NCBI GenBank assembly: GCA_040755995.1
Contig: JBFMAF010000025.1
Coordinates: forward strand, 1 to 41,553
Direction of reading: 5' to 3'
Length of the DNA: 41,553 nt
DNA from: Acidobacteriota bacterium
GTDB lineage: Bacteria > Acidobacteriota > CAIWXX01
Part shown: positions 2,984 through 39,955 of the stretch, piece by piece
Numbering within the stretch: the first letter of the stretch is position 1
How the letters are laid out: each line of letters opens with the position of its first letter
Made by a program: the position numbers and the translations under genes
The notes under the pieces: model-generated
Told to the model about the DNA's origin: nothing
Database searches by the model: none
What the model saw: only the letters and a program-made list of their open reading frames with translations

Positions 2984-3640
2984 CTATCTCGCCCTCAGGC
3001 CGGCAAGCTTCACGGCACCGCGATGATAGCCGTCCGGAAAGAGTTTCTCCAACTCCTCGATTTCGATGTTGAACGCTTCGCACGTCTCGTAGACAGTGGG
3101 AACGATCTGGGCCTTGTGGAAGTTCTGCCGGAGAAACCGGATGAGCTCCCACTGCTTCTCCGTCAGCGGCTCGGCCATCTTCATCTCGTGTGCCTTGTAC
3201 TGCGCATACTGCTCGTCCCACTCGGTCGGATCGACCAGGAAGCCGCGGATGTCGACTCTGTAGGTCTTATCCGGAGCTTTCTCAGCCGGCCCCGGTTCGA
3301 TGGGCAGATACTGATAATGCTGCAGATAGCCTTCTTTGTAAGTGAGCCCCGCCAGCTTGCAGGCGCCTCGCAGATAGCCGCTCGGGAAGAGCGCCTTCAG
3401 GTCCCTCAGGCGAAGTCCGTTCGCCTTGCACGTCTGATAGACGAGCGGGCATTTCCCGAACTCATCCAGCGTGCGCCGGATGAAATGGATCACGTCCCAA
3501 TGCTTCTTCGTCAATCCCTGCGGGATGCCCATATCGGGCGCCGTCGCCACGGCGAAGTTCTCGTCCCACTCACGGTAGTCCTTCAGGAAGCCCGTCGCGT
3601 CGACATGGTATTCCTTCCCGTTTACCTTGACTGTACACAT
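2984..3640 (-). CDS. tandem two-domain TusE/DsrC/DsvC-family sulfur relay protein
   Basis: Two copies of D..GFL....W.....A...LT..(H/Q)W..I.F.R...LFP.G...GA.KLAGL; ATG 3640 after AGGAGGAG RBS. Confidence 0.85.
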   Translation of the reverse strand: MCTVKVNGKEYHVDATGFLKDYREWDENFAVATAPDMGIPQGLTKKHWDVIHFIRRTLDEFGKCPLVYQTCKANGLRLRDLKALFPSGYLRGACKLAGLTYKEGYLQHYQYLPIEPGPAEKAPDKTYRVDIRGFLVDPTEWDEQYAQYKAHEMKMAEPLTEKQWELIRFLRQNFHKAQIVPTVYETCEAFNIEIEELEKLFPDGYHRGAVKLAGLRAR

Positions 3641-3723
3641 GACTCCTCCTCTTATAGAAACGGTTCGATGACTGCATGATGTGTGGGGTCCGGCGGCCGG
3701 CTCGCCGAACCGCTCCCGGCGTA

Positions 3724-4716
3724 TCACTTCGACTCCCATGCCCGAGCCTGACTGATGCGGCTGCGCGGAGGCACGCTGTGCGTCAGCCAGACGTTTCCGC
3801 CGATGACCGATCCTGAGCCGATGGTCACGCGCCCGAGGATCGTGGCACCCGCGTAGATGACCACATCGTCACCGATGATCGGATGTCGCGGAATTCCCTT
3901 GGTCAGATTGCCCTGCGCGTCGCGCGGAAAGCTCTTCGCGCCCAGCGTCACCCCCTGGTAGATCCGCACGCGGTCTCCTATCTCGCAAGTCTCGCCGATG
4001 ACCACTCCGGTCCCGTGGTCGATGAAGAATTTCTCGCCGATTCTCGCCCCAGGGTGGACGTCTATGCCGGTGCGCGCATGCGCAGACTCGGAGATCATCC
4101 GCGGGAGCAGGGGAACCTCGAGCTGGTGGAGCTCGTGAGCGATCCGGTGATTGGTGATCGCCAGGACCCCCGGATAGCAGAACACCGTCTCCTCCGCGCA
4201 GCTTGCCGCCGGATCGCCTTCGAATGCGGCAATGACGTCGGTGGCGAGCAGGTGGCGCACGCGAGGCAGTCGCTGGAGGAAACGATGCGTGGTCTCCAGG
4301 GTATGGTCATGGCACCCAACGCAGTACGCCGGATCGAGCGTGCAGTGAAAGCAGAACGCACGCTGGATCTGCTCTCGCAGCGACCGTTGCGCACGATCCA
4401 GAACCGCGCCTACGTGGAAATGCATGGTCTCGTCGTTGAGATCCGAGACCCCCGAGTACCCCGGGAACAGCACCGATCGAAGATCGTCGAGTATCCGAGC
4501 GACCTCCTCTCGCGAAGGCAATGCCTGCCTGCCTCCATGGTTGGCATTCCAGGATGCAATCCCTTCCGAAGCTGCGCATAGCGCCTCCACGATCGGAGTG
4601 ATCTCGAACTCGCGCACTGAAGTGTCTGGGCGTCTGCCGTCCAATGACACTCCTATTAGTCGACTGATCGGAGCTTCTACCCCTAATCGTTGTGGGTCAT
4701 TGTCCAGTAATGTCAT
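3724..4716 (-). CDS. cysE: serine O-acetyltransferase (EpsC/CysE type)
   Basis: GDPAA..EE...CYPG, HRIAHEL, TGIDVHPGARIG..FFIDHGTGVVIGET, IYQGVTLGA, RHP.IGD.V.IYAGATILG; alternative TTG start at 4644 with AGGAG RBS. Confidence 0.93.
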   Translation of the reverse strand: MTLLDNDPQRLGVEAPISRLIGVSLDGRRPDTSVREFEITPIVEALCAASEGIASWNANHGGRQALPSREEVARILDDLRSVLFPGYSGVSDLNDETMHFHVGAVLDRAQRSLREQIQRAFCFHCTLDPAYCVGCHDHTLETTHRFLQRLPRVRHLLATDVIAAFEGDPAASCAEETVFCYPGVLAITNHRIAHELHQLEVPLLPRMISESAHARTGIDVHPGARIGEKFFIDHGTGVVIGETCEIGDRVRIYQGVTLGAKSFPRDAQGNLTKGIPRHPIIGDDVVIYAGATILGRVTIGSGSVIGGNVWLTHSVPPRSRISQARAWESK

Positions 4717-12333: not shown

Positions 12334-13515
12334 CTAGAGGGCGGCGATGATCGCGTCTGTCATCTGGGTCGTGGACGCCGCGCCTTGAGAGAAGACCGCT
12401 GCAGACCCGGAGAGCTTCGCCATGTCGTACGTCCGCACCTTGCCCTCCTGGACCACCTTCGCGATGGCCCCTTTGATGCGCTCCGAGATCGCGGTCTCGC
12501 CGATGTGCTCCAGCATCATGCAGGCCGACAGGATCGTGGCGATCGGGTTCACGATGGAGGGCTTGAGCTCTGCGTACTTCGGAGCGCTTCCGTGCGTCGG
12601 TTCGAACACCGCGCAGGTGTCGCCGATATTGGCGCTGGCGGCGAACCCGAGCCCGCCCACCAGCCCGGCGAATCCATCGCTCGCGATGTCGCCGAACATG
12701 TTGCCGCTGACGATCACGTGGTAGTCCTCGGGGTTCTTCGTGAGCCACATCATCTGCGCGTCGATGTTGGTGTCCTGGACGCCGATGCCGGGATGCTCCT
12801 TCGCCATCTTGTTGGCCTCGGAGAGCATCATGCCGGAGGTCTCGCGGACAACGTTGGGTTTCTCGCAGACGGTCACAGTGTTCCAGCCGTGAGCCTTCGC
12901 GTGTTCGAAGGCGGCTCTAAGGATGCGCTGGCATGCCTTGCGCGTGAAGATGCGGACGGACACGGCGAGATCCTCGCGCGGGCCCGCGGCGAATGCCTTG
13001 AACTTGGGATGCGTCTTCAGTGCGTCGAATACCACGTCGGGCGGGTTCGTCCACTCGATGCCGCAATAGAGGCACTCGGTGTTCTGGCGGAAGATCACGG
13101 CGTTGATCTTGGGCTCCTCCGCCGACCCGTCCTTTCCGCGCCGGATGAAGTTCAGCGGGTTGCCCTTGAACGAGACGCACGGCCGGATCGAGATGTCGAG
13201 GTTGAACTTCTGGCGCAGTCCTACAATCGGGCTGGTGTAGGTGTAGCCCTTCCCGTGCAGCTCAGGCGCGAGCTCGGCAGCCGCCGCCTCCTTCGGCTTC
13301 GACGTGATAGCGCCGAAGAGCGCGATCCGATGCTCTTCGAGCAGCTTGATCGTGCGGTCAGGCAGCGGATTGCCTTCCTTGCACCAGAACTCCCAGCCGA
13401 TGTCTCCGTGCACGTAGTTGGCCTGGAAGCCCGCGGCTTCCATCACCCTCACCGCCTCGGGCACCACCACGGCTCCAATTCCGTCTCCCGGTAGCAACAC
13501 AATGGTTCGTTTCAT
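12334..13515 (-). CDS. isocitrate/isopropylmalate (possibly homoisocitrate) dehydrogenase family protein
   Basis: LPGDGIG, RQNTECLY, KPNVVRETSG, NMFGDIASD, FEPTHGSAPK, NPIATILS; ATG at 13515. Confidence 0.9.
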   Translation of the reverse strand: MKRTIVLLPGDGIGAVVVPEAVRVMEAAGFQANYVHGDIGWEFWCKEGNPLPDRTIKLLEEHRIALFGAITSKPKEAAAAELAPELHGKGYTYTSPIVGLRQKFNLDISIRPCVSFKGNPLNFIRRGKDGSAEEPKINAVIFRQNTECLYCGIEWTNPPDVVFDALKTHPKFKAFAAGPREDLAVSVRIFTRKACQRILRAAFEHAKAHGWNTVTVCEKPNVVRETSGMMLSEANKMAKEHPGIGVQDTNIDAQMMWLTKNPEDYHVIVSGNMFGDIASDGFAGLVGGLGFAASANIGDTCAVFEPTHGSAPKYAELKPSIVNPIATILSACMMLEHIGETAISERIKGAIAKVVQEGKVRTYDMAKLSGSAAVFSQGAASTTQMTDAIIAAL

Positions 13516-13744
13516 GGGGCTCTTCTTCCTCCTAATGTTCTGACATGCAGAGGCCAATATAGGTGAGAGGCCGGGGCCCGGTCAACATCGCCGGGCCTGA
13601 GGCCAAGCGGCAGACGCCGGCTGACTCCGGCTGATGGCAAACCGCTAGCCGCTCGCCCTGTTCCTCGCTCCACTCGTGATATCATCTGGCTGCCCTGAGT
13701 GCTTCATCCTGCGCAGGGAATACTGCTCTGTTTCGCTACGGGCA

Positions 13745-14055: not shown

Positions 14056-14111
14056 GAACCGAGAACCGAGAACCGTGAACTGTGAACCGGGAACTGTGAA
14101 CCGTGAACTAC
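14056..14111. repeat. 7-bp tandem repeat GAAC(C/T)GN x8
   Basis: gaaccga gaaccga gaaccgt gaactgt gaaccgg gaactgt gaaccgt gaactac, between convergent genes. Confidence 0.85.
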
Positions 14112-14115
14112 GCTG

Positions 14116-14574
14116 CTACACCTGCTGCTGCATCAGCTGCTTGATTCCGGAGACCGCCTCGGAGACGACCTTCGTGGTGATATCGATCTGGAGCGTGAGG
14201 TTGTGCATCTCGGCCTGCATTCCGAGAATCTCCTGTGACGAGAACGAACGCCCGCTCTGCAGCTCCTTGACGATGTCGTTGAGACGGCCGTAGCCTTGCT
14301 CGAGCTCGCCGCCGAGCTTCTTGAGGCCCTCCGGAGTCTGAGCCATCTTCACCTTCTCGTCGATCATGTTCCGAGCGTTGACCTGGTCCCCAATCCCCTG
14401 TCTCTTGATCTCCGGTACCTGGACCTCGATATTGATCGGCTGGCCGGACCCCTTCGTCTGTTCCAGCTGGTCCATGACCTGCTGGAACTGCTTCATGTTT
14501 TCCGGGGCCTCGTCGGCGACCCTTCTGGCCTGCTCCAGAATCGGACCTATCGATTCCATGCCGCCTAGTGTCAT
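14116..14574 (-). CDS. putative T3SS inner-rod protein (SctI/YscI/HrpB2-like)
   Basis: C-terminal helix FSSQEILGMQAEMHNLTLQIDITTKVVSEAVSGIKQLMQQQV matches the inner-rod pattern (ELL.MQ......DL..K......VK.L...Q); AGGGAG RBS; T3SS-like neighbours. Confidence 0.65.
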   Translation of the reverse strand: MTLGGMESIGPILEQARRVADEAPENMKQFQQVMDQLEQTKGSGQPINIEVQVPEIKRQGIGDQVNARNMIDEKVKMAQTPEGLKKLGGELEQGYGRLNDIVKELQSGRSFSSQEILGMQAEMHNLTLQIDITTKVVSEAVSGIKQLMQQQV

Positions 14575-14659
14575 GACATACTCCCTTCTCTAGTCGCAGA
14601 CCCCGCCGTCTGCCGCCGTCCTGTGTCCCCCCCTTTTCCTGATTTCTTCCGCCGACCTG

Positions 14660-15058
14660 TCAGGCTCGCTGGAAGAGCCCGGATCGCAGCCCAGAGAGCA
14701 ACTCCTTGGCGAACGCGACGGCCGATGGGTCGCGATTGCCCTGAACGACAGAGTTCAAGGCTGTCTCGGCCTCGGACCACCGCTTCTGCGCGATGAGCGC
14801 TTCGGCCAGGTAGGCGCGCGTCAGGTCGTGGTCCTCGTGCTGCTGGAGCACCTGCCGGTAGCCGCGCTCCGCGTCTCCGTACTGGCCCTGCGCAAAATGC
14901 CACATGCCGAGGAACAACCCCGGGGTCGGATCATTGGGCCGGAGCGCCTGAGCGGCGTCCAGGAACGATCGCGCTTCCTTCAAGAACCCCGTCCTCATGC
15001 TCATGTACCCAAGTTCCAGGATTATCTGCGGCAGCTTTTCCTGCGATTCCATCGTCAT
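14660..15058 (-). CDS. TPR protein, putative needle chaperone (YscG/CdsG/HrpB1-like)
   Basis: ~130 aa, three TPR-like units (LELGY...G...EAR...LRPNDP..GL.LG...F..G.Y.DAE); immediately downstream of the needle-like gene. Confidence 0.65.
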   Translation of the reverse strand: MTMESQEKLPQIILELGYMSMRTGFLKEARSFLDAAQALRPNDPTPGLFLGMWHFAQGQYGDAERGYRQVLQQHEDHDLTRAYLAEALIAQKRWSEAETALNSVVQGNRDPSAVAFAKELLSGLRSGLFQRA

Positions 15059-15149
15059 GATCTCCTCATTTCGTCAGCGCCTGCGATCGTCGACGGCCGC
15101 GCCGCGGCGGCGACGAGGCAGGTCGTCTCGTGTGCCTGATTCGCCCAGG

Positions 15150-15196
15150 TGCATACTCCGCCCCCACGCGGCCGGAGTCGGGGAGCGGAGAGCGCA
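15150..15196 (-). other. strong intergenic stem-loop 3' of the needle-like gene
   Basis: UGCGCUCUCCGCUCCCC...GGGGGCGGAGUAUGCA pairing; no U-tract. Confidence 0.5.
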
Positions 15197-15205
15197 GTCA
15201 AGAAT

Positions 15206-15460
15206 CTATTTGAAGTTCCGGATGGCGGTAGTGGCGGAGTCGTAGCGCGCCTTCATAACGGTGGACAACGCCTGGTAGGCCTGCTGTTCCTTCAGCATCG
15301 CCTTCTGGAGATCCAGGTAGTACTTCATGTCGTTGGACCCGGTGGCGTCTGGGTCCTGCATCTTGCTCTGGAAATCCGCGGCGTTGACGTTGGACTGGTC
15401 GATGGCGTCGGTGCCAAGATTGGTGGCCCCTCGAGAATAGTTGACTTGAAACGAGCTCAT
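15206..15460 (-). CDS. putative T3SS needle subunit (SctF/YscF/HrpA-like)
   Basis: 84 aa; C-terminal helix LDLQKAMLKEQQAYQALSTVMKARYDSATTAIRNFK fits the needle pattern (LQ...Y...S...K...D....I.NF(R/K)); GGAGGT RBS. Confidence 0.65.
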   Translation of the reverse strand: MSSFQVNYSRGATNLGTDAIDQSNVNAADFQSKMQDPDATGSNDMKYYLDLQKAMLKEQQAYQALSTVMKARYDSATTAIRNFK

Positions 15461-15732
15461 GGTTTACCTCCAAATGTCTTCTGTATGACGGGCAACATCT
15501 GGGCGGCCAAGAGCAGCGCCTTCTGGACGGCAGCCGAGGATTCTCGGCGGCCCATGGTTGCCAGCTCGTCTACCTTGTTGCGAAATTCATTGGACGGCAG
15601 GTGGACCAGCTCTGAGAGCGTCGGGAAGGCCATCGGATCCAACTGGCCTTTCGAGGAAGGTCCGTCCTGGTTTCTTTGGGGAACGGCGGCAGACGCGATG
15701 TCACCCACACGGAAGCCGGATTGCTCGGTCAT
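15457..15732 (-). CDS. small protein, candidate YscE/CdsE-like needle co-chaperone
   Basis: 91 aa, helical C-terminus (AAVQKALLLAAQML); ATGA overlap with the needle-like gene; AGGAGGT RBS; function inferred from position. Confidence 0.5.
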   Translation of the reverse strand: MTEQSGFRVGDIASAAVPQRNQDGPSSKGQLDPMAFPTLSELVHLPSNEFRNKVDELATMGRRESSAAVQKALLLAAQMLPVIQKTFGGKP

Positions 15733-15758
15733 CGCATACCTCCTGACTCAGCTCCAAT

Positions 15759-15865
15759 TGTACCCGACCGTGCATTGCGGCGATAGGTGCGGGTACACTT
15801 TCTCCCAAAGCGAAGCTGCGCTCCCTCGCTTCCGGGAACGCAGCCTCACCAGGTTGGGAGAGAGT
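15759..15865 (-). other. two adjacent long RNA stem-loops in an intergenic region
   Basis: CUCUCCCAA..GGUGAGGCUGCGUUCCC/GGGAGCGCAGCUUCGCU..UUGGGAGA followed by UGUACCCG...CGGGUACA. Confidence 0.55.
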
Positions 15866-15883
15866 CTTGCGTAATCTCTGACC

Positions 15884-16435
15884 CTATGCGGGTGGTGCCG
15901 CCTGGGCCTTCTTGGCCTCCGAGATGATCTCCTGGAGCACTCCGGGCCCCTTCTCCTGCACCTCCTTGGCGATGGTCGATACAAGCAAGGCCGACGTGCG
16001 CGCGCGGTTCGCGTACGGATCCTTGCCCTCGGGATCGAGCGCCACCGCCTTCTGGAAGTAGTCGATCGCGGGCTCGATCCAGCCCTTCTCCAGGCAGATC
16101 TCGCCGGCGAACGTATGCGCCGCGACGTCCTGTGGGTTGTATCCCAATGCGACCTGGAACGAGGAGAGCGCTGCGTCATTCAGGTTCTTCTGCATGTACA
16201 CGCAGCCGAGCCCCGTGTGCAGAAACGGGTTCTGCGGATCCAGCGCCACCAGTCCCTCCATCAACGTCTGTGCATCGTCTAGCTGGCCCTGCTCGGCGAG
16301 CTGCCGCGCCACGATTGACAGAGCCAGTATGTCCTCGAGAGAGATTCCGATAGCCTCGGCGAGCGTGTCATGGCCCGCCATGAGCTGCTTCATCCGCGCT
16401 TTAAGTTCTTCGAAGTCTTTGTTGTTATTTCCCAT
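15884..16435 (-). CDS. SycD/LcrH/CesD-like TPR type III secretion chaperone
   Basis: G..TLAEAIGIS.EDI..L...A......G..DDA.....GLVALDP....H.GLG.......; three TPRs, ~180 aa. Confidence 0.75.
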   Translation of the reverse strand: MGNNNKDFEELKARMKQLMAGHDTLAEAIGISLEDILALSIVARQLAEQGQLDDAQTLMEGLVALDPQNPFLHTGLGCVYMQKNLNDAALSSFQVALGYNPQDVAAHTFAGEICLEKGWIEPAIDYFQKAVALDPEGKDPYANRARTSALLVSTIAKEVQEKGPGVLQEIISEAKKAQAAPPA

Positions 16436-16463
16436 TGTGGTCTCTCCTAACCTGCTCTGAGTT

Positions 16464-17375
16464 CTATCGGAAGTTCCGGATGGCGCCCATCATCATGTCG
16501 TGCATGCTCTTGCGCATCTCGTTGATCGCCTGGATCATCTGCTGGATCTTCTGCATCTTCTGCTGCAACTGCTGCATCTTCTTCTGGCCTTCTGGCTTGC
16601 TGGTGTCGATGCTCTCCATCTCCTTTTCGATGCTGGCCATCTCATCGAAGCACTTGTTCATCGCCCCTTCACCGAACCCGGCACCGCTGACGCCACTGCC
16701 GCCGCTGGCTCCGCCCGATCCGCCTGCCTGGCCTGCTCCGCCCGCGCCGCCCGCGCCGCCCGCGCCGCCGGCACCCTGCGCCCCTCCGGCCTGTCCGGCC
16801 CCACCGACGCCCAGGATGTTCTTGAGCTGGTCGAGCAGCGAGCCGAGCGTAGGCGGCTGCTGCGGCTGGCCCAGACCCTGCAGAAGCTTGCCGAGCTGGT
16901 CAAGCGTACCCTGGACCTGGTTGAGTGAGTTGCCCAGGTTCTGCAGCAGCTGGCTGTTGGGCTGCATGATGTTTTGCAGAGTGTTCTGCATGTTGTTCAT
17001 CATGTCCATCATCTTGTGCATGTCCTGGTGCATGTGCGCCGGCCCGAAGCAACCCGGGCGCATCGGCTGCCCGCCCATGCCCGGGAACTGCGGGAACATG
17101 CCGCGGCCGGCCAGCTGGCCGATGCCCTGCATCATCTGGTCCATGCCCTTGTGGAACATCTTGTCGCCGAGGCCCTTCATCATGCCGCCATGCTGCATCA
17201 GTTCATGGCCCTTCGTCATCTGGGCCGCACCACCGGCGATCTTCTCGAACGCGTCGCCAATGCCGGGCAACTTCGGGAACATCCCGCCGCCCATGCCCTG
17301 CATCATGCCCTGGGCGAGATTCTGGATCATGGGCATGATCATTTGCGCTGCCATGCCCGCTAGTGCTGGTAACAT
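16464..17375 (-). CDS. Gly/Met/Gln-rich low-complexity protein with needle-like C-terminus (candidate T3SS filament/harpin-like substrate)
   Basis: GAGGAGG RBS; no Trp or Tyr; (GGA)n linker; ends KMQQLQQKMQKIQQMIQAINEMRKSMHDMMMGAIRNFR. Confidence 0.7.
   Translation of the reverse strand: MLPALAGMAAQMIMPMIQNLAQGMMQGMGGGMFPKLPGIGDAFEKIAGGAAQMTKGHELMQHGGMMKGLGDKMFHKGMDQMMQGIGQLAGRGMFPQFPGMGGQPMRPGCFGPAHMHQDMHKMMDMMNNMQNTLQNIMQPNSQLLQNLGNSLNQVQGTLDQLGKLLQGLGQPQQPPTLGSLLDQLKNILGVGGAGQAGGAQGAGGAGGAGGAGGAGQAGGSGGASGGSGVSGAGFGEGAMNKCFDEMASIEKEMESIDTSKPEGQKKMQQLQQKMQKIQQMIQAINEMRKSMHDMMMGAIRNFR
16741..16767. repeat. 9-bp coding tandem repeat (cccgcgccg x3) in Gly-Gly-Ala linker
   Basis: Exact triple repeat inside the GGAGGAGGAGGA peptide stretch. 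Confidence 0.7.
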
Positions 17376-17566
17376 CCCTTTCCTCCTCGTTGAGTTTTAT
17401 AGGTTTGTGTTTCTATCCGTTGACGAACCTGGGTCCACAATTGCCATGCCGGCGCACGGGCGGAGGCTTCCCAGACTCCACCTGCTGCTGGCTGGCTCGA
17501 CTGCTGAACCGTTGACATTGGGGCAAATGGTACCCCGCTCTCCTGCTAATTTGGAAACGAACTTTT

Positions 17567-17575
17567 ATTATACCA
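17567..17575 (-). promoter_or_regulatory. putative extended -10 sigma-70 promoter for the Gly/Met-rich gene
   Basis: TGGTATAAT on the minus strand in an AT-rich intergenic region, ~190 nt before the ATG. Confidence 0.5.
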
Positions 17576-17703
17576 GGAAACTCTACCCATCGCCAGTGAT
17601 TTGTTTTCCGGGCAAGCCGTCCTGGGCCGTGACGCGTGCCGTTCCAATTCGCTGTGCTCAATGCCCCATGGCTCCACGACTCACCATCTCTCATTCCACA
17701 CGC

Positions 17704-17732
17704 TATTATCGGACGCGCATCGAAATTGTTGT
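17704..17732 (-). promoter_or_regulatory. putative sigma-28-type promoter
   Basis: ACAA-N15-TCCGATAA (canonical TAAA-N15-GCCGATAA); related motif at 18826-18838. Confidence 0.45.
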
Positions 17733-18454
17733 CACCGAAGTACGGTTGCACTGGGCGGCGGATTCATCGCACGCTGGACAAGCAGTCGCAACGATCTGAT
17801 CGCTTTCTGGTGTATCCGGCTGGCCCAGGAGCGGGACACGCCGAGCTGTTCAGCCGCTTCAGCAATGTTCAATCCTTCGAAGTAGACCTTGCGCACAAGC
17901 TGCGCCTCCTGTTCGGTGAGCTGGCGCATTGCTTTGGAGATGTAGTCGCTCCATTCGGCCGTCTGGGCGAGCGCCTCGCCCTCCGGCGGGCGATACTCGT
18001 CGCCGCCGAAGGCGGCCATGGCATGGCTCAACATGAAGAGCACCGTGCTGTCGTGCAGAGACTCCTCGATCGTGCTGCACATCTGCTCCACCTCCACCAC
18101 CGGCGCGTCGCCGTCGCACGTGCGCGTGGCGAGGAGCTCATGGAACCCGCGCGCGAACCTGATCTTCTCGCTCATTCTCCGGGACAGTCCCCGCATCTTG
18201 CAAAGGCCGTCCAGGATCGCACCGCGAATCCTGTAGTAGGCGAACGTGGAGAACTGGCACTGGCTCTCCGGTCTGAAGCGGTCGACCGCTTCGATCAGGC
18301 CGATCTGCCCGTATCCTACAAGATCCTCCAGCGCCACTGCCTTTCCGAGAGTCTGCCAGACGGACGCAGCGATGTGACGCACGAGCCCCTGATGCTGCAC
18401 TATCCGATCGTCTCGCGACAGCGCCGCCAGCTGCGGTTGAGTGCTCATGGACAC
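17732..18454 (-). CDS. FliA/WhiG (sigma-28)-family RNA polymerase sigma factor
   Basis: Region 2 EDLVGYGQIGLIEAVDRF.P...FSTFAYYRIRGAILDGL; region 4 LTEQEAQLVRKVYFEGLNIAEAAEQLGVSRSWASRIHQKAI. Confidence 0.9.
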   Translation of the reverse strand: MSMSTQPQLAALSRDDRIVQHQGLVRHIAASVWQTLGKAVALEDLVGYGQIGLIEAVDRFRPESQCQFSTFAYYRIRGAILDGLCKMRGLSRRMSEKIRFARGFHELLATRTCDGDAPVVEVEQMCSTIEESLHDSTVLFMLSHAMAAFGGDEYRPPEGEALAQTAEWSDYISKAMRQLTEQEAQLVRKVYFEGLNIAEAAEQLGVSRSWASRIHQKAIRSLRLLVQRAMNPPPSATVLR

Positions 18455-18463
18455 GCTGATCCG

Positions 18464-18808
18464 CTACGGCATTCTCTCTCTGACCAGTTTCTGCAACAGG
18501 GCCTGGAAGGTCGGGTCATCCCTCAGCGCTTCGGTCAGGTGCTCGTGGAGCTGCGACCGGAGCGTCTCACCCCACGTGCGCGTCGGCACGTTCCGCTGGA
18601 TCCACGAGTCGATCACCTTCTGCGAAATCGCGTTGACATCCCAGGCGCGACCGCCCGCGGGAGCGAGGCTCGTCTTGACTATGCTCAGGAACTCTTTCGC
18701 GGACGCGGGCATTTCACTGTCTATCCTGCTGGTTTGACCCGGTGTTTGTGAAGACGAATCGATTGGCATTGGATTGATGTTCTTCGGACCTTCTGCGATG
18801 CGTGTCAT
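18464..18808 (-). CDS. hypothetical protein directly upstream of the sigma factor
   Basis: 114 aa; polar N-terminus, helical C-terminus (LTEALRDDPTFQALLQKL); 9-nt gap to the sigma gene. Confidence 0.65.
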   Translation of the reverse strand: MTRIAEGPKNINPMPIDSSSQTPGQTSRIDSEMPASAKEFLSIVKTSLAPAGGRAWDVNAISQKVIDSWIQRNVPTRTWGETLRSQLHEHLTEALRDDPTFQALLQKLVRERMP

Positions 18809-19018: not shown

Positions 19019-21142
19019 TCAACTCGCCGCCGCTCGCCGCGAGTGGAGGAGGTCGTCGAGGGTGCGGGCGAGCTCGCTGATCGTGAAGGGTTTCGCGAGG
19101 GCTGCCGCGAATCCCTCGGCGCGATAGTCGGCCAGCACGGGGTCGTTGGAGTAGCCGCTGGCCACGATCGCGATAACCTCCGGGTCGGAGATCTTCAGTG
19201 TGGCCAGAGCCTCCTTCCCGCCCATTCGTCCCGGCACCGTGAGATCCATGATTATGCAGTCGAAAGGTCTATCGGACTGACACGCCTCTTCATAACGCCG
19301 CACTGCGGCTCCACCGTCGGCCACGGCCTCGGCCTCATACCCGAGCTCACTCAGCACGTCCTCGTACATCATTCTCAACTCGGGCTCGTCGTCCATCACA
19401 AGCACGCGTCCCCGGCCACGAGGGACAATCGCCGGCTCCGGCTCGGCGGCAGCCTTTTCCGGCAGGGCGGGGATGTAGATACAGACAGTGGTTCCCAGCC
19501 CGGGCGTTGAGTCGATTGCGAGGTGCCCGTTGTGGTTTCGCACTATCGCGTATGCGGTGCTTAGACCCAGGCCCGAACCGTTCTGCTTGGTGGTGAAATA
19601 CGGGTCGAAGACCCGCTCTCGGATCCCGGCCGGCATCCCTATGCCGTGGTCCGTGATGGAAACCTTCACGTAGGCACCGGGCTCGAGCGGGTGCCAAGTC
19701 GCCTCTTGGAAAGACGCGTTTTCACATCTCACCACGACGGGGCCTCCACCGGGGCTCGCCTGGTCGGCGTTGATCACTATGTTGCTGATGACCTGCGCAA
19801 ACTGTCCCTCATCGATGTCTGCGCACCAGAGATCGCCGGGGATCTGGAAGGTGCAGCTGGAATTGGAGCCCGTGAGGGCGAAGGATGCGGATTCGCGAAT
19901 GAGCTTCCCGAGGTCGGTGGTGCGTTTCACGGGCGCGCCGCCTTTCGCGAACGCGAGCAGTTGCCCTGTGAGCCGCTTGGCTCGTTGGATCGCGATCTCG
20001 GCGGCTGCCAGTTGCACTGAGACTTCCTCGGGGCGGCTTCCTCGATGGCGGGCGAGCGAGACGTTGCCGAGGACGGCCGCGAGGACGTTGTTGAAGTCGT
20101 GTGCGATGCCGCCGGCGAGTAGTCCGAGCGACTCGACCCTGCTTGACCGCAATCGCTCCTCCTGCAGCCTCCGCCTTTCCGTCACATCCTGAGCCATGAC
20201 GAGCACCCGCAGCCGTCCTTCCAAGGAGATGTGCTGCGCGCGCACCTCCAGGTCCCTCAACTCGCCCGAGCCGGCCAGGTGTCTCACCAGCACGGGTTCG
20301 GGGCCCGGCTGCATGTCAGCGGGCGTCTTCTCCATTACCTCGTTCAACCACTCGATTCCTATCTCGCTCGGAAGGCGTCCCACGAGCTCCTTGCGGCCTC
20401 GCCCGCAGAGCAACGTGGCGGCGACATTCGCATCGATCACCGCTCGGCGATCCGGATCAAGCACGAAGTACGGCGACGCCGCACTCTCGAATAGAGCACG
20501 ATATCGCTCCTCCGACTCCGCCAGCTCGGCAGCCCGCTGCATTTCCTGCGAGCGCAGCGTTGAGATCAATCGCCGCTTGGCTTGCAGGTTGCTGATCCCG
20601 ATGAGCGCGAAGAATGCGGCCGCGTAGAGGATGAGAACCCGGAAGGTAAGGATGATCAGGGTCTGCAACGAGGGCCGTTCGTAGACGACCGTCATCGCAA
20701 GGTACGCGATGGTGTTGGCCGCCATGATCACGACTATGCCTCTGCGTCCGATCAGGAACGCGGCCGCCGCCACGTTGGCCAGGGCCCAGGGGAACCAGTA
20801 GCTCTGTGAGCCGCCTGTAATGTGTATCAGCCATGCGATGAGCAGAACATCCGAACCCATCCAGAGAGCCTGCAATGAAACACCGAGGATCCGGCGCAGA
20901 CCTCGCCTGAATGCCAGGCCGAACAGCAGCGAGCTCCCGTCCGACAAACAGACGTACATGCCGACGAGCCACCAGGACCACTGGAACTCGCCCACGAGCT
21001 TCGCTACGCATGCAACGGCGATCCCGGTCGAGTACACGAGCGCGCGGCTCTTCTGGACCTTGACCTGGAAGTCCCGCCACTTCCGTTCGTCCGCCGGAAG
21101 AGCCTCAGGAGGCGAAAGGCCGCGATCTGGCTTCGTGGTCAA
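19019..21142 (-). CDS. membrane hybrid sensor histidine kinase (TM-PAS-HisKA-HATPase-REC; CckA-like architecture)
   Basis: AGGIAHDFNN, NIVINADQA, DHGIGM, FDPYFTTK..GSGLGLS, receiver VLVMDDE...IMDLTVPG..GG...KPF; TTG start at 21142 after GGAGG. Confidence 0.92.
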   Translation of the reverse strand: MTTKPDRGLSPPEALPADERKWRDFQVKVQKSRALVYSTGIAVACVAKLVGEFQWSWWLVGMYVCLSDGSSLLFGLAFRRGLRRILGVSLQALWMGSDVLLIAWLIHITGGSQSYWFPWALANVAAAAFLIGRRGIVVIMAANTIAYLAMTVVYERPSLQTLIILTFRVLILYAAAFFALIGISNLQAKRRLISTLRSQEMQRAAELAESEERYRALFESAASPYFVLDPDRRAVIDANVAATLLCGRGRKELVGRLPSEIGIEWLNEVMEKTPADMQPGPEPVLVRHLAGSGELRDLEVRAQHISLEGRLRVLVMAQDVTERRRLQEERLRSSRVESLGLLAGGIAHDFNNVLAAVLGNVSLARHRGSRPEEVSVQLAAAEIAIQRAKRLTGQLLAFAKGGAPVKRTTDLGKLIRESASFALTGSNSSCTFQIPGDLWCADIDEGQFAQVISNIVINADQASPGGGPVVVRCENASFQEATWHPLEPGAYVKVSITDHGIGMPAGIRERVFDPYFTTKQNGSGLGLSTAYAIVRNHNGHLAIDSTPGLGTTVCIYIPALPEKAAAEPEPAIVPRGRGRVLVMDDEPELRMMYEDVLSELGYEAEAVADGGAAVRRYEEACQSDRPFDCIIMDLTVPGRMGGKEALATLKISDPEVIAIVASGYSNDPVLADYRAEGFAAALAKPFTISELARTLDDLLHSRRAAAS

Positions 21143-21452
21143 CGCGCCTCCGGATGCCTGACCGCCATCCGGCCCGGGAGAGGATCTGCACCTCGCGCGC
21201 CTATGCAAACCAGGCTTTCCATGGCATGGCATCGCCGCCCGCCGAGCGGCGAACCGTTCACGAGGCTTCGCGCGGAATCGTAGTCCCGACGGCAGGCGCC
21301 CTGTGCACCGCTCCGGGGCATGTAACTCGATCCTCTACGCGCGAATATAGGACCCCATCCCGGAATTGTCAACCAACGTCGTTCGCATGCGGTTGTTCGC
21401 CCGAGCTATGCGAGTATAGAATTGCTTCCGGAGGCAGGCGTGAGGCGAATCG

Positions 21453-22415: not shown

Positions 22416-23800
22416 CGCACCGAGTAGATGCTCGCGTCATTGAAAGACTTCGGGATGCGTGCCCCGGAGTGCTCACCGACGAGGAATCGCTGGCCCAGTA
22501 TGGGCACGACGAGACCGAGGACCTGCGCTTTCCGCCGTCGGTTGTGGTGAAGCCGCGAACGACCGAGGAAGTCTCGGCGATCATGCGGCTGGCGAACGAG
22601 GAGAGGGTTCCGGTGACGCCGCGCGGCGCGGGCACGGGTTTGAGCGGCGGAGCGCTGGCGGTGGAAGGCGGGATCGTGCTTTCTATCGAGCTCATGAACC
22701 GCATCGTGGAGATCGATCGCGAGAATCTGGTGGCCGTCGTCGAGCCTGGCGTCATCACGCAGGTGCTCCAGGAGGAGGTCGAGAAGGTCGGACTGTTCTA
22801 TCCGCCGGATCCCGCCAGCCGCGGCAGCTGCACGATCGGCGGGAACATCGCGGAATGCGCGGGCGGCCCGCGTGCGCTGAAGTACGGTGTCACCAAGGAC
22901 TATGTGCTGGGTGTGCAGGTGGTATTGACGTCGGGAGAGGTTGCGGAATTCGGCGGGAAGCTCTTCAAGGACGTCACCGGCTACAGCATGACGCAGCTCT
23001 TCGTCGGCAGCGAGGGGACCCTCGGTATCGTCACCAGGGCCGTGCTTCGCCTGATCGCCTACCCGCCGCACCGGAAGACACTGATCGTTCCGTTCCGGCA
23101 GACCGAGGATGCCGCCGCAGCCGTCGCGCGCATTTTTCAGGCCGGGGTCATGCCCTGCGCCTGCGAGCTCATGGAACGGGACGTGGTGAAGCGCATCGAG
23201 GAGTACAGGGGCGTCCACGTCCCCTCCTCCGATGCGGAGGCGCAACTCCTGATAGAGATCGACGGCCATTACGAGGATGTTCTGGATCGCGACCTGGAGA
23301 AGATCGCGGGCGTCTGCGAGTCGACGGGCGCGGGCGACATCCTGGTCGCCGAGAATCCGAAGAAGCAACAGGAGTTGTGGGACCTGCGGAGATCGGCCGG
23401 CGAAGCCGTCAAGAAGATTTCAATCTACAAAGAGGAGGACACGACGGTGCCGCGCGCGCGGCTGCCGGAGCTCATCCGCGGGGTGAAGGCCATTGCGCTG
23501 AAGCACGCGATTCGAACGTACTGCTACGGGCATGCGGGCGACGGCAACCTCCACGTGAATATCGTGAGAGGTGACATGGATGCGGAGAGGTGGGAGCGGG
23601 AGCTGCCGAAGGCGGTGGAAGAGGTGTTCGTCCTGGTGAAATCGCTCGGCGGTCGTATCAGCGGCGAGCACGGCATCGGGTATTCCCAGAAGCGCTATAT
23701 GCCCATCGTCTGCACACCCGCGGAATTGGATGCCATGCGCGCGATCAAGCGGGCCCTGGACCCGTCCAACATACTCAATCCGGGCAAGATCTTTCCGTGA
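22412..23800 (+). CDS. FAD-linked oxidase, GlcD/D-lactate dehydrogenase family
   Basis: PRGAGTGLSGGA, YPPDPAS...CTIGGN..ECAGG..ALKYGVT, GSEGTLG, GHAGDGNLH, SGEHGIG, LNPGKIF. Confidence 0.92.
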   Translation: MTHRVDARVIERLRDACPGVLTDEESLAQYGHDETEDLRFPPSVVVKPRTTEEVSAIMRLANEERVPVTPRGAGTGLSGGALAVEGGIVLSIELMNRIVEIDRENLVAVVEPGVITQVLQEEVEKVGLFYPPDPASRGSCTIGGNIAECAGGPRALKYGVTKDYVLGVQVVLTSGEVAEFGGKLFKDVTGYSMTQLFVGSEGTLGIVTRAVLRLIAYPPHRKTLIVPFRQTEDAAAAVARIFQAGVMPCACELMERDVVKRIEEYRGVHVPSSDAEAQLLIEIDGHYEDVLDRDLEKIAGVCESTGAGDILVAENPKKQQELWDLRRSAGEAVKKISIYKEEDTTVPRARLPELIRGVKAIALKHAIRTYCYGHAGDGNLHVNIVRGDMDAERWERELPKAVEEVFVLVKSLGGRISGEHGIGYSQKRYMPIVCTPAELDAMRAIKRALDPSNILNPGKIFP

Positions 23801-23826
23801 TTTCAGATTTCAGATTTCAGATTTGG
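23799..23826. repeat. 7-bp tandem repeat GATTTCA x3-4
   Basis: gatttca gatttca gatttca gatttgg overlapping the oxidase stop codon. Confidence 0.75.
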
Positions 23827-33150: not shown

Positions 33151-33532
33151 ATGGGTTTCGGACCTGGAGACTACGAATACACAAATCACGCGGTGGGGTG
33201 GGGTCCCGATCGGCGGTCGGGCCTCACCCTCCCGCCTTCCTCGCTTCGCTCTGCACTTCGCCTCACGTGCGCGACTCCTGGCCTCTGAAGATGCTGGAAA
33301 ACCAACAGGCTGTGCTTGTTTTGCAGTCTGCGGACGGCGGATTCCTGCGTGCTTCGAGTGCGCGTCGTGCGATATGGAGCGGCACGATCTGGCACCTAAG
33401 GTCGACGGGACGTTCCATGCCCGAATCCAGGGCGGGCGAATAAGAGAGACGCCGGGCCCGAGGCGAAGCTCCACTAGGACTTCGACCTATCTTACTATCG
33501 GGCCCATTCGCTGATTGCGGGGACGTGTGCTC

Positions 33533-33552
33533 TGCATATAATAGAGTATGCG
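33533..33552. promoter_or_regulatory. candidate enhancer-binding-protein site (inverted repeat)
   Basis: TGCATA-N8-TATGCG with an AT-rich core, ~75-95 bp upstream of the -24 element. Confidence 0.4.
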
Positions 33553-33625
33553 ATCTCGCGCAAGCGGCGTGGTTACGAGACAGGAACAGGTGCGAGCGAC
33601 GCATACGCAGCCCGGAGCGGCGGCC

Positions 33626-33641
33626 CGGCACGATTCTTGCA
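33626..33641 (+). promoter_or_regulatory. sigma-54 (-24/-12) promoter of the metal efflux operon
   Basis: CGGCACG-ATTC-TTGCA, GG-N10-GC spacing exact, 160 nt before the TolC ATG. Confidence 0.7.
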
Positions 33642-33800
33642 GAGTTCCACCGGGAGGTCGACGTGAGAGAAGGCGAGTCTTCGGCTGCGACACGGTCCAT
33701 CCTGGCTTTCCGGTCTAGTCGGATCTCGACCAGCCGCCAGGCGGACATGAGGTTTCTCGATAGTGTCAGCGCCATCCGTAATTGCAGGGGGATCTGTGTG

Positions 33801-35093
33801 ATGGGCAAGTGGACGACCATGAGTATGCTTTCGGGGCTCACTCTCGTGAGTGCAATGCCGGTTCCAGCGGGTCTGCCGGCCGAGGAGCCGGTTGCGCTTG
33901 CGGCGGTGGTAGAGGAGGCGGTGCAGCGGAACCCGGAGCTTCAAGCTTCGAAGGCCATGTACGAGGCATCGACATTCCGGCCGTCTCAGGAGGGCGCACT
34001 CCCGGACCCAACCATAGGCATCATGTCAACCAGCATGACCAACCCGATCCCGCTCTATTATGCGGATCCGATCGCCAATGTCGCCATACGGGCATCGCAG
34101 GAGATCCCGTACCCTGGGAAACGGCGGCTGGCCAGCGAGGCGGCAAAGCTGGAATCCGAGGCCCTGGAGCAGTCCTATCAGGCGCGGCGTTTGGCCGTTA
34201 TCGCCTGGGCGAAGGAGGCCTACTTCGCGATCGCTTACTATGACCGGGCGCTGCGGCTCCTCGGCGAGAACCTGGTGTTGCTCGATGAGCTCTCACGCGC
34301 CGCCCAGACGCGGTACGCCGTCGGCACTTCTTCCCAGCAGGACGTCCTGAGAGCCCAGACTGAAATCTCGGTATTGACGGCTCGAAAGGTCGCGATCGAG
34401 CAGCAACGACAGGCGGCCGTGGCCAGGCTGAACGGGCTGCTTAACCGACCCGCAGGCACGCCCTTCGGAACGCCGGTTGACTACCCGATACCCGCTCTTC
34501 CTCCTCTGGCGGCCGATTTGCGCGAAGGAGCGAGAGCGAGGTCGCCTGAGCTCAGGGCTCGGCAACTGGACCTGGATGCTGCGGCTGCGAAGCTCGAGCT
34601 GGCGAAAAAACAGCTCATGCCGGACTTCATGCTCGGCGCATCATACGGTTACTCCCGCGAGTATCGCGACATGTGGCAGCTCAACTTAGACCTGAAGGTG
34701 CCGCTCTATCGCCGTGAGAAGCAGAAGATGGGCATACAGGAAGAGACACGCAACGTGGAAGTCGCGCGCCGGGAGCTCGACGGCGCGCTCCAGACGGTCA
34801 CCGCCGGCATCGAGGAACAGTACGCAATGGCCGCAGCCGCATGGCGCCTCATCACGCTTTACGACTCAGGGATCATTCCTCAGGCCCGCCTCACACTCGA
34901 AGCTTCTCTTTCCAGCTACAAGGTCGGCGAGGTCGACTTCCTCACGGTTGTGACGAACTTCATCTCGGTCCTGGAGTATCGAATGAACTACTATGAGCAG
35001 GTGTCCGACTACCAGAAGGCTTTGAGTCAGATCGAGCAACTCGCCGCGACCGAGCTGCTTTCGACCCAGGCTACCACGGAGAACAAGTCATGA
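33801..35093 (+). CDS. TolC-family outer-membrane efflux protein (CusC/CzcC-like)
   Basis: NPEL, LPDP, SQEIPYPGKR, AYF, RYAVG...QQDVLRAQ, YKVGEVDFL; ATG 33801 after GGGGGA. Confidence 0.9.
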   Translation: MGKWTTMSMLSGLTLVSAMPVPAGLPAEEPVALAAVVEEAVQRNPELQASKAMYEASTFRPSQEGALPDPTIGIMSTSMTNPIPLYYADPIANVAIRASQEIPYPGKRRLASEAAKLESEALEQSYQARRLAVIAWAKEAYFAIAYYDRALRLLGENLVLLDELSRAAQTRYAVGTSSQQDVLRAQTEISVLTARKVAIEQQRQAAVARLNGLLNRPAGTPFGTPVDYPIPALPPLAADLREGARARSPELRARQLDLDAAAAKLELAKKQLMPDFMLGASYGYSREYRDMWQLNLDLKVPLYRREKQKMGIQEETRNVEVARRELDGALQTVTAGIEEQYAMAAAAWRLITLYDSGIIPQARLTLEASLSSYKVGEVDFLTVVTNFISVLEYRMNYYEQVSDYQKALSQIEQLAATELLSTQATTENKS

Positions 35094-39600: not shown

Positions 39601-39897
39601 CGGGGGGCTTTGAGATCCCCCGCCGATCTGGACGAGGCGATCGTCCACGGCGCAGTCAAGCGCGCGCGGCCGAAGATGATGACGGTGTGCGCGGCGTTCA
39701 TGGGCCTCGTCCCGATCATGTGGTCCACATCGGCCGGGGCCGACGTAATGAAACGAATCGCCGCGCCCATGATCGGCGGCCTCGTCACATCGTTCCTGCT
39801 GGAGCTGCTCGTCTACCCGGCAATTTACAAACTGTGGAAGCTGAGGGAGATTCCGAAGGAGGCGGTGGTGGCGCCGGCCCTGCCGACACAGCTGTGA
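36619..39897 (+). CDS. cusA: CusA/CzcA heavy-metal RND transporter (Cu/Ag type)
   Basis: LDALPDLSDTQVI, LGPDATGVGWV, FMPPLNEG..LYMP, TDPAPFSMMET, RPKMMT, APMIGG. Confidence 0.93.
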   Translation: MIQHIIEFSAKNRIFVLMVVAALCVLAGYILQEIRLDALPDLSDTQVIIYSKWDRSPDIIEDQVTYPIVTALLGAPRVKAIRASTDFGFSYVYVIFQDGTDIYWARSRVLEYLSKIQTRLPEGVQTELGPDATGVGWVFQYALLDSSGTHTPDQLRSYQDWTLRYAIQSVTGVSEVASIGGFVKQYQVTVDPNRLATYQLPLSEVIAAIRMSNNEVGGRLLEWSGREYMVRGRGYSRSLSDFKQIVVKVGPGGVPVLLRDVAQVDLGPEIRRGISDLDGLGDTVGGIVVMRHGENALNVIRRVKDKLREIKPYLPKGVEVVTTYDRANLIERAIETLKHELTIEMIIVSLVILIFLWHVPSAIVPIVTIPVSVLLSFIPMYYLGVTVNIMSLAGIAISIGVLVDGAIVEVENAYNKLHLWEAGGRKGDFHAVRLEALKEVGPSVFFSLLVIAVAFIPVFALVDQEGRLFKPLAYSKNLAMAIAAILAITLDPAMRMLFTRMDPISFRPRFLSWLSTKVAVGTYYAEEKHPISRAIFRVYEPACRFVLRHPKTIIGIAILMVAGSIPFYFKLGTEFMPPLNEGSMLYMPTTLPGISVTQAQELMQTQDRVLRSFPEVERVFGKAGRADTSTDPAPFSMMETTVILKPQDQWRKKDRWYSQQSPEWLKPLLRPIWPEYISWEELVNELDAALRIPGVTNAWTMPIKARIDMLTTGVRTPIGIKIFGQDLKEIEKIGEQLETVVRRIPGTRSVYAERVTGGYFADFLPRRDQLARYGLTVEQLQDVIMSAIGGQNITTTVEGRERYPVNLRYPRELRDDIGRLQRVLVPTPSGAQIPLIQLADIQLVQGPAMIRDENGFLAGYVYVDITGRDIGSYVEEAKRIVREELAVPPGYVLQWSGQYENMLRVRERLKVVVPITLGLIFLLLFANTRSTFKAMVVMLAVPFSAIGAIWLFYFLDYNVSIAAWVGMIALLGLDAETGVFMLLFLDLSHDDAKRRGALRSPADLDEAIVHGAVKRARPKMMTVCAAFMGLVPIMWSTSAGADVMKRIAAPMIGGLVTSFLLELLVYPAIYKLWKLREIPKEAVVAPALPTQL

Positions 39898-39955
39898 CAT
39901 GCACAGAACTGCGGAGATTGCCCGGGGGCGCAATCGACGCTGAGGAGAACACATA

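Follow-up and report, generated by a model that had tools for sequence, protein, structure and literature searches.

The window analysed here is the entire 41.5-kb contig C25 of a metagenome-assembled genome (MAG) of an uncultured Acidobacteriota bacterium of soil or sediment (G000; 7.7 Mb, 56 contigs, 99.84% completeness, 3% contamination), and at positions 14116 to 18808 it carries a cassette of eight genes related to the type III secretion system (T3SS). Our analysis indicates that this cassette is probably one half of a non-flagellar T3SS locus that has been split by a rearrangement, namely the half encoding the needle, the rod, chaperones and a regulator, and that it brings its own sigma factor together with a small protein, p114. 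The host is not of the myxobacterial setting evoked in an earlier prediction that was made from the letters alone (hereafter the original prediction).

All eight open reading frames (ORFs) lie on the minus strand at the coordinates originally given. In the order of transcription they are:

18464–18808, minus strand: p114, 114 amino acids (aa)
17732–18454, minus strand: sigma, 240 aa
16464–17375, minus strand: p303, 303 aa
15884–16435, minus strand: TPR183, 183 aa
15457–15732, minus strand: p91, 91 aa
15206–15460, minus strand: p84, 84 aa
14660–15058, minus strand: TPR132, 132 aa
14116–14574, minus strand: p152, 152 aa

The co-directional arrangement, the unrelated flanks and the ATGA overlap between p91 and p84 (15457–15460) were all verified. 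Ribosome-binding sites had been claimed for the whole set, but a clear Shine-Dalgarno sequence is present on six of the eight genes, p114 and sigma being the two without one. The spacing, described as tight, is so only in part, as the intergenic gaps from p114 to p152 measure 9, 356, 28, 151, −4, 147 and 85 bp. The G+C content at third codon positions is 0.70–0.87 across the eight ORFs. Public gene calls start shorter than the conserved N-termini suggest for p114 (82 aa), p303 (from residue 16) and sigma (238 aa, the form used by the source annotation, from the ATG at 18448). The claim that the 41.5 kb hold neither core nor flagellar genes was borne out: T3SS and flagellar Pfam families were absent from the 31 other window ORFs that were scanned, and tblastn detected no copy of SctV, SctU, SctN, SctR, SctJ or SctQ on the contig. 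It should be noted that the window is a whole contig, so that the statement that no export apparatus is nearby is bounded by the contig size.

The export apparatus was located elsewhere in the same genome. A genome-wide search for the T3SS core, as suggested along with the original prediction, revealed sctJ to sctV on contig C10, where one strand carries sctJ, an unknown 355-aa gene in the SctK position, sctL, sctN, a YscO-like gene, an SctP-type gene, an FHA-fused sctQ, a FliO-like gene, sctR, sctS, sctT, sctU, sctV and two FHA/Yop-YscD_cpl proteins. The genome contains exactly one FHIPEP gene, which is part of this cluster and scores 775.6 bits as SctV (cut-off 692.25) and 650.1 bits as FlhA (cut-off 772.1). 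SctV, SctN, SctR, SctS, SctL and the FliJ/YscO-like protein pass their curated cut-offs, and SctU, SctT, SctQ and SctJ match below theirs. The SctP-type gene contains Flg_hook (FliK-C) and HpaP domains, and the Yop-YscD_cpl FHA domains correspond to an FHA-type SctD. SctV, SctU, SctR, SctJ and SctQ are single-copy in the genome, and SctN otherwise matches only ATPase genes elsewhere that are 27–32% identical. With regard to flagella, the genome has no flagellin, no second FHIPEP and no FliF-size match, rod, hook and motor families not having been part of the search. Genes for SctW, a tip or a translocon were not found. The FHA domain of SctQ is N-terminal (C10, 38534–40240), and the FliO-like gene stands before sctR (C10, 38084–38422).

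In close relatives the two halves are contiguous. The cassette runs directly into sctJ, which follows the p152 gene, in all three close relatives (3/3), two of them from the same family (G001 and G002) and one from another (G026); these were the only loci returned by a search with a narrow p84 alignment, and all three are Acidobacteria/Acidobacteriota MAGs from groundwater and sediment. G002 contains all eight cassette genes in identical order. Past the cassette the order in the relatives is sctJ, a 355-aa gene (SctK position), sctL, sctN, sctO, sctP, sctQ, a FliO-like gene, sctR, sctS, sctT, sctU, sctV and the FHA-type SctD genes. The neighbourhood comparison suggested earlier thus showed that the cassette order is kept. 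The idea of a split injectisome stands in so far as the core lies elsewhere in the genome, on C10, but a separate module is not the design of the system, since all three relatives have it contiguous with sctJ. For the same reason the split is specific to G000.

The identities of the cassette proteins were examined by an hhalign matrix against reference T3SS loci on annotated plasmids of Nitratidesulfovibrio vulgaris, Aeromonas salmonicida and Photobacterium damselae. p84, the C-terminus of p303, TPR132, p152 and TPR183 each gave their best match to the expected reference protein, and in the first comparison, with four references, the off-target matches had E-values of 0.048 or worse. As judged from its sequence, p152 is the SctI inner rod protein: it scores 24.5 bits against TIGR02497 (cut-off 23.45) and 26.7 bits against PF17001 (cut-off 32.4), and it aligns to annotated SctI with E 1.4e-4. 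TPR132 resembles the YscG/HrpB1 TPR chaperones, matching the Pfam family HrpB1_HrpK (PF09613) with 33.2 bits (gathering score 29.3) and annotated YscG with E 5.4e-10 over 113 columns; along its entire length it also shares 27% identity with the TPR gene next after the needle gene of the N. vulgaris plasmid. On NCBIfam its matches to CdsG, HrpB1 and SctY are all under the cut-offs. TPR183 appears to be a SycD/LcrH-like class II chaperone, related to that family though not a member by the curated cut-off (TIGR02552, 44 bits; cut-off 104.8). It carries TPR families in Pfam and matches four annotated SycD/LcrH/SicA proteins with E 1e-8 (probability 95.7, 121 columns), compared with E 1.9e-5 for YscY and 0.065 for YscG. 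The non-flagellar character claimed for these parts was thus confirmed by SctI over its NCBIfam cut-off and HrpB1_HrpK over its Pfam cut-off, and the profile comparisons tie the proposed SctF, YscG and SycD labels of p84, TPR132 and TPR183 to annotated members.

p84 appears to be a SctF-like needle subunit. The p84 family aligned to three annotated needle proteins with E 1.8e-4 (probability 48, 40 columns in register), other references giving E-values of about 0.05 or higher, and the AlphaFold2 (AF2) model of p84 is a hairpin of two helices (17–34 and 42–83) joined by a loop (pLDDT 64.7). Its gene is placed between the YscE-position gene and the YscG-like gene, upstream of sctI. In this position the preceding p91 would be a YscE-position small protein and possibly a needle co-chaperone, as suggested by its position, size and conservation; it has no match in Pfam or NCBIfam. 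Several results weigh against these assignments. p84 has no match to the Pfam family T3SS_needle_F (PF09392, E up to 1), to NCBIfam or to sequences of the PDB, either as single sequences or as profiles, and the probability of the profile–profile link to SctF is only 48%. For p91, no profile similarity to annotated YscE was detected (E 0.33). TPR132 matches YscY (E 1e-8) nearly as well as YscG, so that gene position decides between the two. The Foldseek comparison of the p84 model with the PDB, which had been suggested as a check of the original prediction, gave no match, and a wide VIA-align search with the same model produced only generic long helices (Z up to 5.8), both outcomes being uninformative for a hairpin of 84 aa.

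p84 has few close relatives (five by word-indexed search). A full HMMER scan with a profile of eight p84 sequences returned 293 proteins at E up to 1e-3, all matching C-terminally and most of them 80–190 aa long. Pfam was scanned for 74 of these 293; 72 had no T3SS family and two had a sub-threshold T3SS_needle_F match. Many of the unannotated proteins from the scan, 100–570 aa in length, have in common only a needle-like C-terminal domain (LQ..MQK.QQ...SN..KA.HD....AIRN.R) and differ greatly in their N-terminal parts, which suggests a wider family of 'extended needle' proteins.

p303 combines a needle-like C-terminal hairpin with a body of about 230 aa that is rich in Gly, Met and Gln (G 19.8%, M 12.9% and Q 12.2% of the protein). 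Its C-terminal 70 aa match the p84 family with E 2.7e-11 and annotated SctF with E 1.2e-5 (probability 81). p303 is a candidate for a filament or tip protein that polymerises, or else for a substrate of secretion. Its AF2 model is of low quality overall (pLDDT 50.8), with helices at 236–255 and 261–302. No profile similarity was found to LcrV, SctA, SctB, SctE, LcrG or YscX, and in Pfam and NCBIfam there was only weak coiled-coil noise. An Atlas look-up gave leads scoring 0.86 or less, including Myxococcota clusters with a minority of T3SS_needle_F members. A lone p303 paralog of 239 aa (24.6% identity over 297 aa) is encoded elsewhere in the genome (C44, 40320–41039, minus strand); as judged from translations only, its neighbours are an apparent FHA-domain protein and an apparent extracytoplasmic function (ECF) sigma/anti-sigma pair.

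The sigma factor of the cassette is a FliA-like (group 3) factor, probably dedicated to the T3SS locus, in agreement with the FliA type assigned to it earlier. It contains the Pfam domains Sigma70_r2 and Sigma70_r4. An SctJ-type match of at least 139.6 bits in open frames of 178–370 aa is present in 20 of 301 sampled Acidobacteriota genomes, G000 included; the next best score was 100 bits, and the remaining matches were mostly of FliF size (520–660 aa). An ortholog of the sigma gene was found within about 3 kb of needle, sctI or sctJ genes on the same contig in 10 of these 20 T3SS-bearing genomes (G000, G002, G026, G119, G083, G070, G143, G107, G154 and G056, from families f1, f7, f33 and f43), and two more (G095 and G131) have a strong ortholog on another short contig. 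A dedicated FliA-like factor is less well supported by other observations: the best NCBIfam match of the sigma protein, TIGR02479 (FliA_WhiG), scores 113.8 bits and is under the cut-off of 189.6; the six genomes of family f17 have no linked sigma gene and their best match lies elsewhere, as does that of G113; and G001 has neither a sigma gene at its T3SS locus nor a strong ortholog.

The sigma ortholog of G107 (C778, 16728–17408) has one in-frame TGA inside the match. In G000 a different gene (C27, 71662–72345) passes the FliA/WhiG cut-off with 247 bits, though the genome has no FlhA, FliF or flagellin, and three more FliA-like paralogs are located on contigs C28, C42 and C41.

Directly upstream of the sigma gene, or overlapping it, is an ORF of 107–125 aa in six of the seven linked loci inspected, the exception being G083. 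These p114-like ORFs have a common C-terminal pattern, L..L...L..DP......L. The family has no Pfam match and no sequence relative in the PDB, profiles included, it showed no similarity to any of the hhalign references, and 11 homologues were found among 5.8 billion proteins. In a model of the complex of p114 and sigma, the pair scored 0.84 (runs of 0.84, 0.83 and 0.84), whereas the best of three controls scored 0.06. Of 157 solved complexes, 116 reach the mark for this score, as do 2 of 215 mismatched pairs; these counts hold only roughly here because custom alignments were used. At least 83% of the contacts are common to the runs, and the pLDDT of the partner is 69–70. p114 is predicted to contact sigma residues 28–77, 97–144, 160–165 and 230, which correspond to sigma regions 2, 3 and 4, as would be typical of a FlgM-like anti-sigma factor. 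The first approximately 30 residues of p114 make no confident contacts. Since the model supports binding between the two proteins, p114 is a candidate anti-sigma factor of a new family. Two points count against this assignment, namely that none of six p114 family members (0/6) matches FlgM (PF04316) at E up to 5, and that complexes of sigma and FlgM have already been solved, so that the passing score may partly reflect likeness to them.

With regard to promoters, one candidate site was identified in the cassette:

17705–17726, minus strand: candidate sigma-28-like promoter ATTTC-N10-CGATAAT, just past the sigma stop codon and about 330 nt upstream of p303

G002 has this motif in the corresponding position, and similar sites precede the needle gene in G143, an sctI-like gene in G035 and p114 in G002. 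Upstream of sctJ a housekeeping-like motif, TTGGAC..TATGAT, is conserved in G000, G001 and G002; the intergenic alignment of these three genomes shows little conservation beyond the promoter-like sites named here. The motif ATTTC-N10-CGATAAT occurs genome-wide in G000, on both strands, twice exactly and 38 times with at most one mismatch. Two results detract from its significance: only one of these relaxed-motif sites falls within the two T3SS loci, and across nine genomes the T3SS loci show no enrichment of the canonical sigma-28 promoter TAAA-N15-GCCGATAA relative to shuffles or to the antisense strand. A two-tier transcription scheme fits weakly with these sites, which do not establish the regulon. 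The late operon under a FliA hierarchy, as originally proposed, thus retains one conserved but weak sigma-28-like candidate upstream of p303 and loses the enrichment of the canonical consensus.

The sigma/p114 pair might also be something other than an export-coupled checkpoint: p114 could be a co-factor, a chaperone or an ordinary cytoplasmic anti-sigma factor under the control of some other signal, or the sigma factor could regulate genes outside the T3SS. Such a role is what one might expect from the missing similarity of p114 to FlgM, from one strong motif site in the T3SS loci of G000 against 37 more with at most one mismatch elsewhere, and from the hybrid histidine kinase encoded directly upstream in this genome. 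However, four families show linkage of the pair to needle, sctI and sctJ genes, no such histidine kinase adjoins the cassette in the relatives, and the first approximately 30 residues of p114 are left without confident contacts in the model. On balance we regard a pair without such a checkpoint as rather unlikely.

A further point at which the locus departs from an injectisome is the secretin. No SctC-type secretin was found in G000, the best TIGR02516 match (on C55) having 152 bits and a cut-off of 238.45, and no secretin domain was detected in the window, in positions 1–80 kb of C10 or in the T3SS loci of nine relatives. As none of the T3SS loci examined has a secretin, an extracellular needle is not assured. 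Seven secretins are present elsewhere in G000 and are not assigned to systems.

These results bear on the alternative that the machine is in effect needleless, like the T3SS* of Myxococcus, with p84, p303 and p152 forming a periplasmic rod or stub or serving as cargo, and with the apparatus cooperating with a different machine of the envelope, be it one of the seven secretins or a system like Tad or the type II secretion system (T2SS). Besides the failure of any SctC-type secretin to pass, and the absence of one from the fetched T3SS loci, the FliO-like gene and the FHA domains fused to SctQ and SctD recall myxobacterial systems. As far as the available passages of these sources go, FliO occurs in non-flagellar T3SS of Myxococcota (PMC12248157), the M. 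xanthus T3SS* is described as 'needleless' and is used with the Tad pilus (PMC12075869), and a secretin-less ancestor with periplasmic SctF has been proposed (PMC3459982). On the other hand, the SctP-type ruler domains (Flg_hook and HpaP) fit a structure whose length is controlled, the dedicated chaperones resembling YscG and SycD have been retained, and the seven secretins elsewhere in G000, which are not assigned to systems, also argue against this alternative. We therefore consider an effectively needleless machine unlikely.

The split itself coincides with a repeat. Tandem Repeats Finder (TRF) detected arrays of the heptamer GAACCGT at both junctions:

14056–14108, no strand assigned: tandem array of GAACCGT, 7.6 copies, right after the p152 stop codon
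C10, 46290–46344: array of the GAACCGT unit, 7.9 copies, just upstream of the sctJ promoter region

The array next to p152 is followed by Iso_dh, and a TonB receptor gene lies on the far side of the C10 array from sctJ. GAACCGT-unit arrays account for 6 of the 215 period-7 arrays in G000, and two of these six are at the split junctions. Judging from the geometry of the contigs, the two T3SS halves would lie at least ~44 kb apart. We conclude that one ancestral locus was cut at a GAACCGT array in a lineage-specific rearrangement.

Heptamer arrays are also seen in other places. The 215 period-7 arrays found by TRF in G000 have many different units (for example 23799–23824 of the window), and some of them are in intergenic gaps of the T3SS core (C10, 38466–38492, 40275–40313, 41832–41862 and 45187–45222). 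In G001 similar heptamer arrays are found upstream of the p91 and TPR132 genes. A strict scan for (GGTTCNC)x3 gave 12 hits, three arrays lying just after secretin genes (C16, C24 and C29).

An assembly or binning artefact at the heptamer repeat, with cassette and sctJ contiguous in the cell, would account for the same picture, the genome being a MAG of 56 contigs with 3% contamination and GAACCGT-unit repeats standing exactly at both junctions. Moreover, no public contig bridging the cassette–sctJ junction was found, and all that three sediment-metagenome runs yielded was short contigs of low depth from a relative that is ~90% alike, none of which bridges 14056–14116. However, both junctions are inside their contigs (C25 and C10), flanked to either side by 14 kb or more, and no more than 13 exact bases are common to the two arrays, which is too few to mislead a k-mer assembler and argues against an assembly chimera. 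An artefact would also have to be a reciprocal chimera and not a simple contig break, and the contigs with the cassette and the core are alike in G+C content (0.623 and 0.627, respectively). An artefact thus appears highly improbable. Finally, a deliberately separate 'late' operon of a split injectisome, typical of the lineage, agrees with the placement of the module on a different contig at least ~44 kb from the core, with its own sigma factor and with the sigma-28-like candidate before p303 and the housekeeping-like TTGGAC..TATGAT before sctJ, but as a lineage trait it is largely refuted, and scarcely probable any more, by the direct run into sctJ in 3/3 close relatives, by the sigma gene lying between needle, sctI and sctJ genes in four further genomes and by the GAACCGT array at both breakpoints, which points to a secondary rearrangement.

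In the favoured reading, a single non-flagellar T3SS locus split by rearrangement, the C10 genes would build the basal body and export gate, and SctI, the p84 needle subunit and p303 would be exported through this gate. TPR132, and perhaps p91, would hold p84 in the cytoplasm before export, and p303 would share the needle polymerisation domain with p84. The rearrangement at the GAACCGT array would have moved the half from sctJ onward to C10, at least ~44 kb away. The sigma factor would act as the regulator of the locus, with p114 binding it and keeping it inactive. If the analogy to FlgM and FliA holds, p114 may also be among the exported proteins as soon as the machine has become competent. 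The freed sigma factor would then transcribe at least the p303/TPR183 unit from the sigma-28-like promoter. As for the target, bacteria or protists are pure speculation.

The cassette is flanked by two unrelated genes, neither of which adjoins it in the relatives:

12334–13557: enzyme of the isocitrate/isopropylmalate dehydrogenase family (Iso_dh)
19019–21232: hybrid histidine kinase/receiver

Two further features of the window were observed. A protein of 251 aa (2984–3739, minus strand) consists of two DsrC-like stretches and a LexA-type DNA-binding domain, and a Cus-like metal efflux operon (33525–40378) encodes an outer membrane factor, a membrane fusion protein with heavy-metal-binding domains and a resistance–nodulation–division (RND) pump, followed by a YHS-domain protein.

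The main points of interest are a sigma-bearing, secretin-less acidobacterial T3SS lineage and a conserved sigma/p114 pair that is predicted to bind. Among the 20 of 301 Acidobacteriota genomes with an SctJ-type gene, half keep the sigma gene beside the needle genes. If sigma and p114 do form an export-coupled switch, flagellar-style timing of expression would also exist in a secretion machine, and p114 would represent a new anti-sigma family. Needle genes without a secretin are directly relevant to the origin of injectisomes from flagella. In practice the findings are chiefly of use for annotation, the p84, p303 and p114 families now being labelled 'hypothetical'.

With regard to earlier descriptions, we found in the literature none of an acidobacterial injectisome or of an injectisome-encoded FliA-type sigma factor, in a search confined to the texts themselves; acidobacterial systems may be listed in the supplements to the FliO preprint and to Abby and Rocha. 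In the available passages of Abby and Rocha (2012; PMC3459982), non-flagellar T3SS are placed only in Chlamydiae, Proteobacteria and Verrucomicrobia, the chlamydial T3SS is given a T2SS-like secretin, the Myxo family is described as lacking SctF and secretin and as limited to Cystobacterineae, and an ancestor without a secretin but with a periplasmic SctF structure is proposed. The passages available of the FliO preprint (PMC12248157) report FliO in non-flagellar systems of Myxococcota, some Pseudomonadota and Chlamydiia, those of PMC12075869 have the 'needleless' T3SS* of M. xanthus working together with the Tad pilus, and those of the TXSScan paper name Acidobacteria only in relation to Tad pili.

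The best plasmid matches of SctN are ATPases of the Ysc and Desulfovibrio types, with 58–59% identity. In an SctN tree of 20 rows, all ten acidobacterial T3SS ATPases are on the flagellar FliI side of a split with support 100/99, and the Ysc, Desulfovibrio, Rhizobium, Hrp2, Hrp1 and SPI-1 references are on the opposite side. The acidobacterial systems are thus outside the classical injectisome families on this tree, which has long branches and unresolved basal forks and contains no Myxo or Chlamydia references.

In gene order the locus resembles the Ysc- and Desulfovibrio-type loci (yscE-F-G-H-I-J-K-L and yscN-O-P-Q-R-S-T-U), the order from the YscE position through R being the same as on the N. 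vulgaris, A. salmonicida and P. damselae plasmids. The N. vulgaris plasmid locus, for instance, has a small ORF, the needle gene, a TPR protein, a rod-position gene, sctJ, an SctK-position gene and sctL, N, O, P, Q and R in this very order. In contrast to these types, the acidobacterial locus contains a FliO-like gene, FHA domains on SctQ and SctD, and a FliA-like sigma factor and p114 at its head; its needle family is missed by PF09392, and neither sctC and sctW nor genes for a tip or a translocon were found. The likeness to the Myxococcus xanthus T3SS*, as far as the latter is covered by the available passages of its descriptions, consists in a non-flagellar system of an environmental non-pathogen with FliO and no secretin in the locus. 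Unlike the Myxo systems, which those passages describe without SctF, the acidobacterial locus has a SctF-like gene, a YscG-like chaperone, SctI and an SctP-type domain. Membership in the Myxo-type T3SS was considered and rejected, given the SctF-like gene, the acidobacterial host and, in the same passages, the confinement of the Myxo family to Cystobacterineae. A bolder proposal would be a deep-branching acidobacterial T3SS akin to the intermediate predicted by Abby and Rocha, which lacks a dedicated secretin but already possesses SctI, a ruler and a needle of the SctF type. Such a lineage would also have retained flagellar traits, namely the FliO-like gene and a sigma factor of the FliA kind held by p114, a small anti-sigma factor of a new family whose export by the machine would serve as a FlgM-style checkpoint; at present we regard this proposal as doubtful.

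The regulators of the cassette recall the flagellar FliA/FlgM checkpoint in that a FliA-like sigma factor is encoded beside a small partner predicted to contact regions 2, 3 and 4, and in the CGATAA-type −10 element. They differ from it in that there is no flagellum, p114 is outside the FlgM family, the sigma protein is under the FliA cut-off and the promoter spacing is non-canonical. In the ExsE/ExsC/ExsD/ExsA system, of which exsE and exsD are annotated in the fetched Aeromonas locus, a small inhibitor encoded in the locus could likewise couple transcription to secretion competence, the activator there being of the AraC type. In BtrA/BtrS of Bordetella, a regulator is released by secretion of its inhibitor. 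In place of a FliA-like group 3 factor, the Exs and Btr systems rely on an activator of the AraC type or on an ECF sigma factor, and they have no sequence relation to p114. The chlamydiae have their T3SS distributed over several loci, possess an FHA-type SctD and have kept a FliA-type sigma-28 factor without a flagellum. The chlamydial scattering is a trait of the lineage, whereas the split described here is that of one genome, with a sigma gene embedded among the needle genes.

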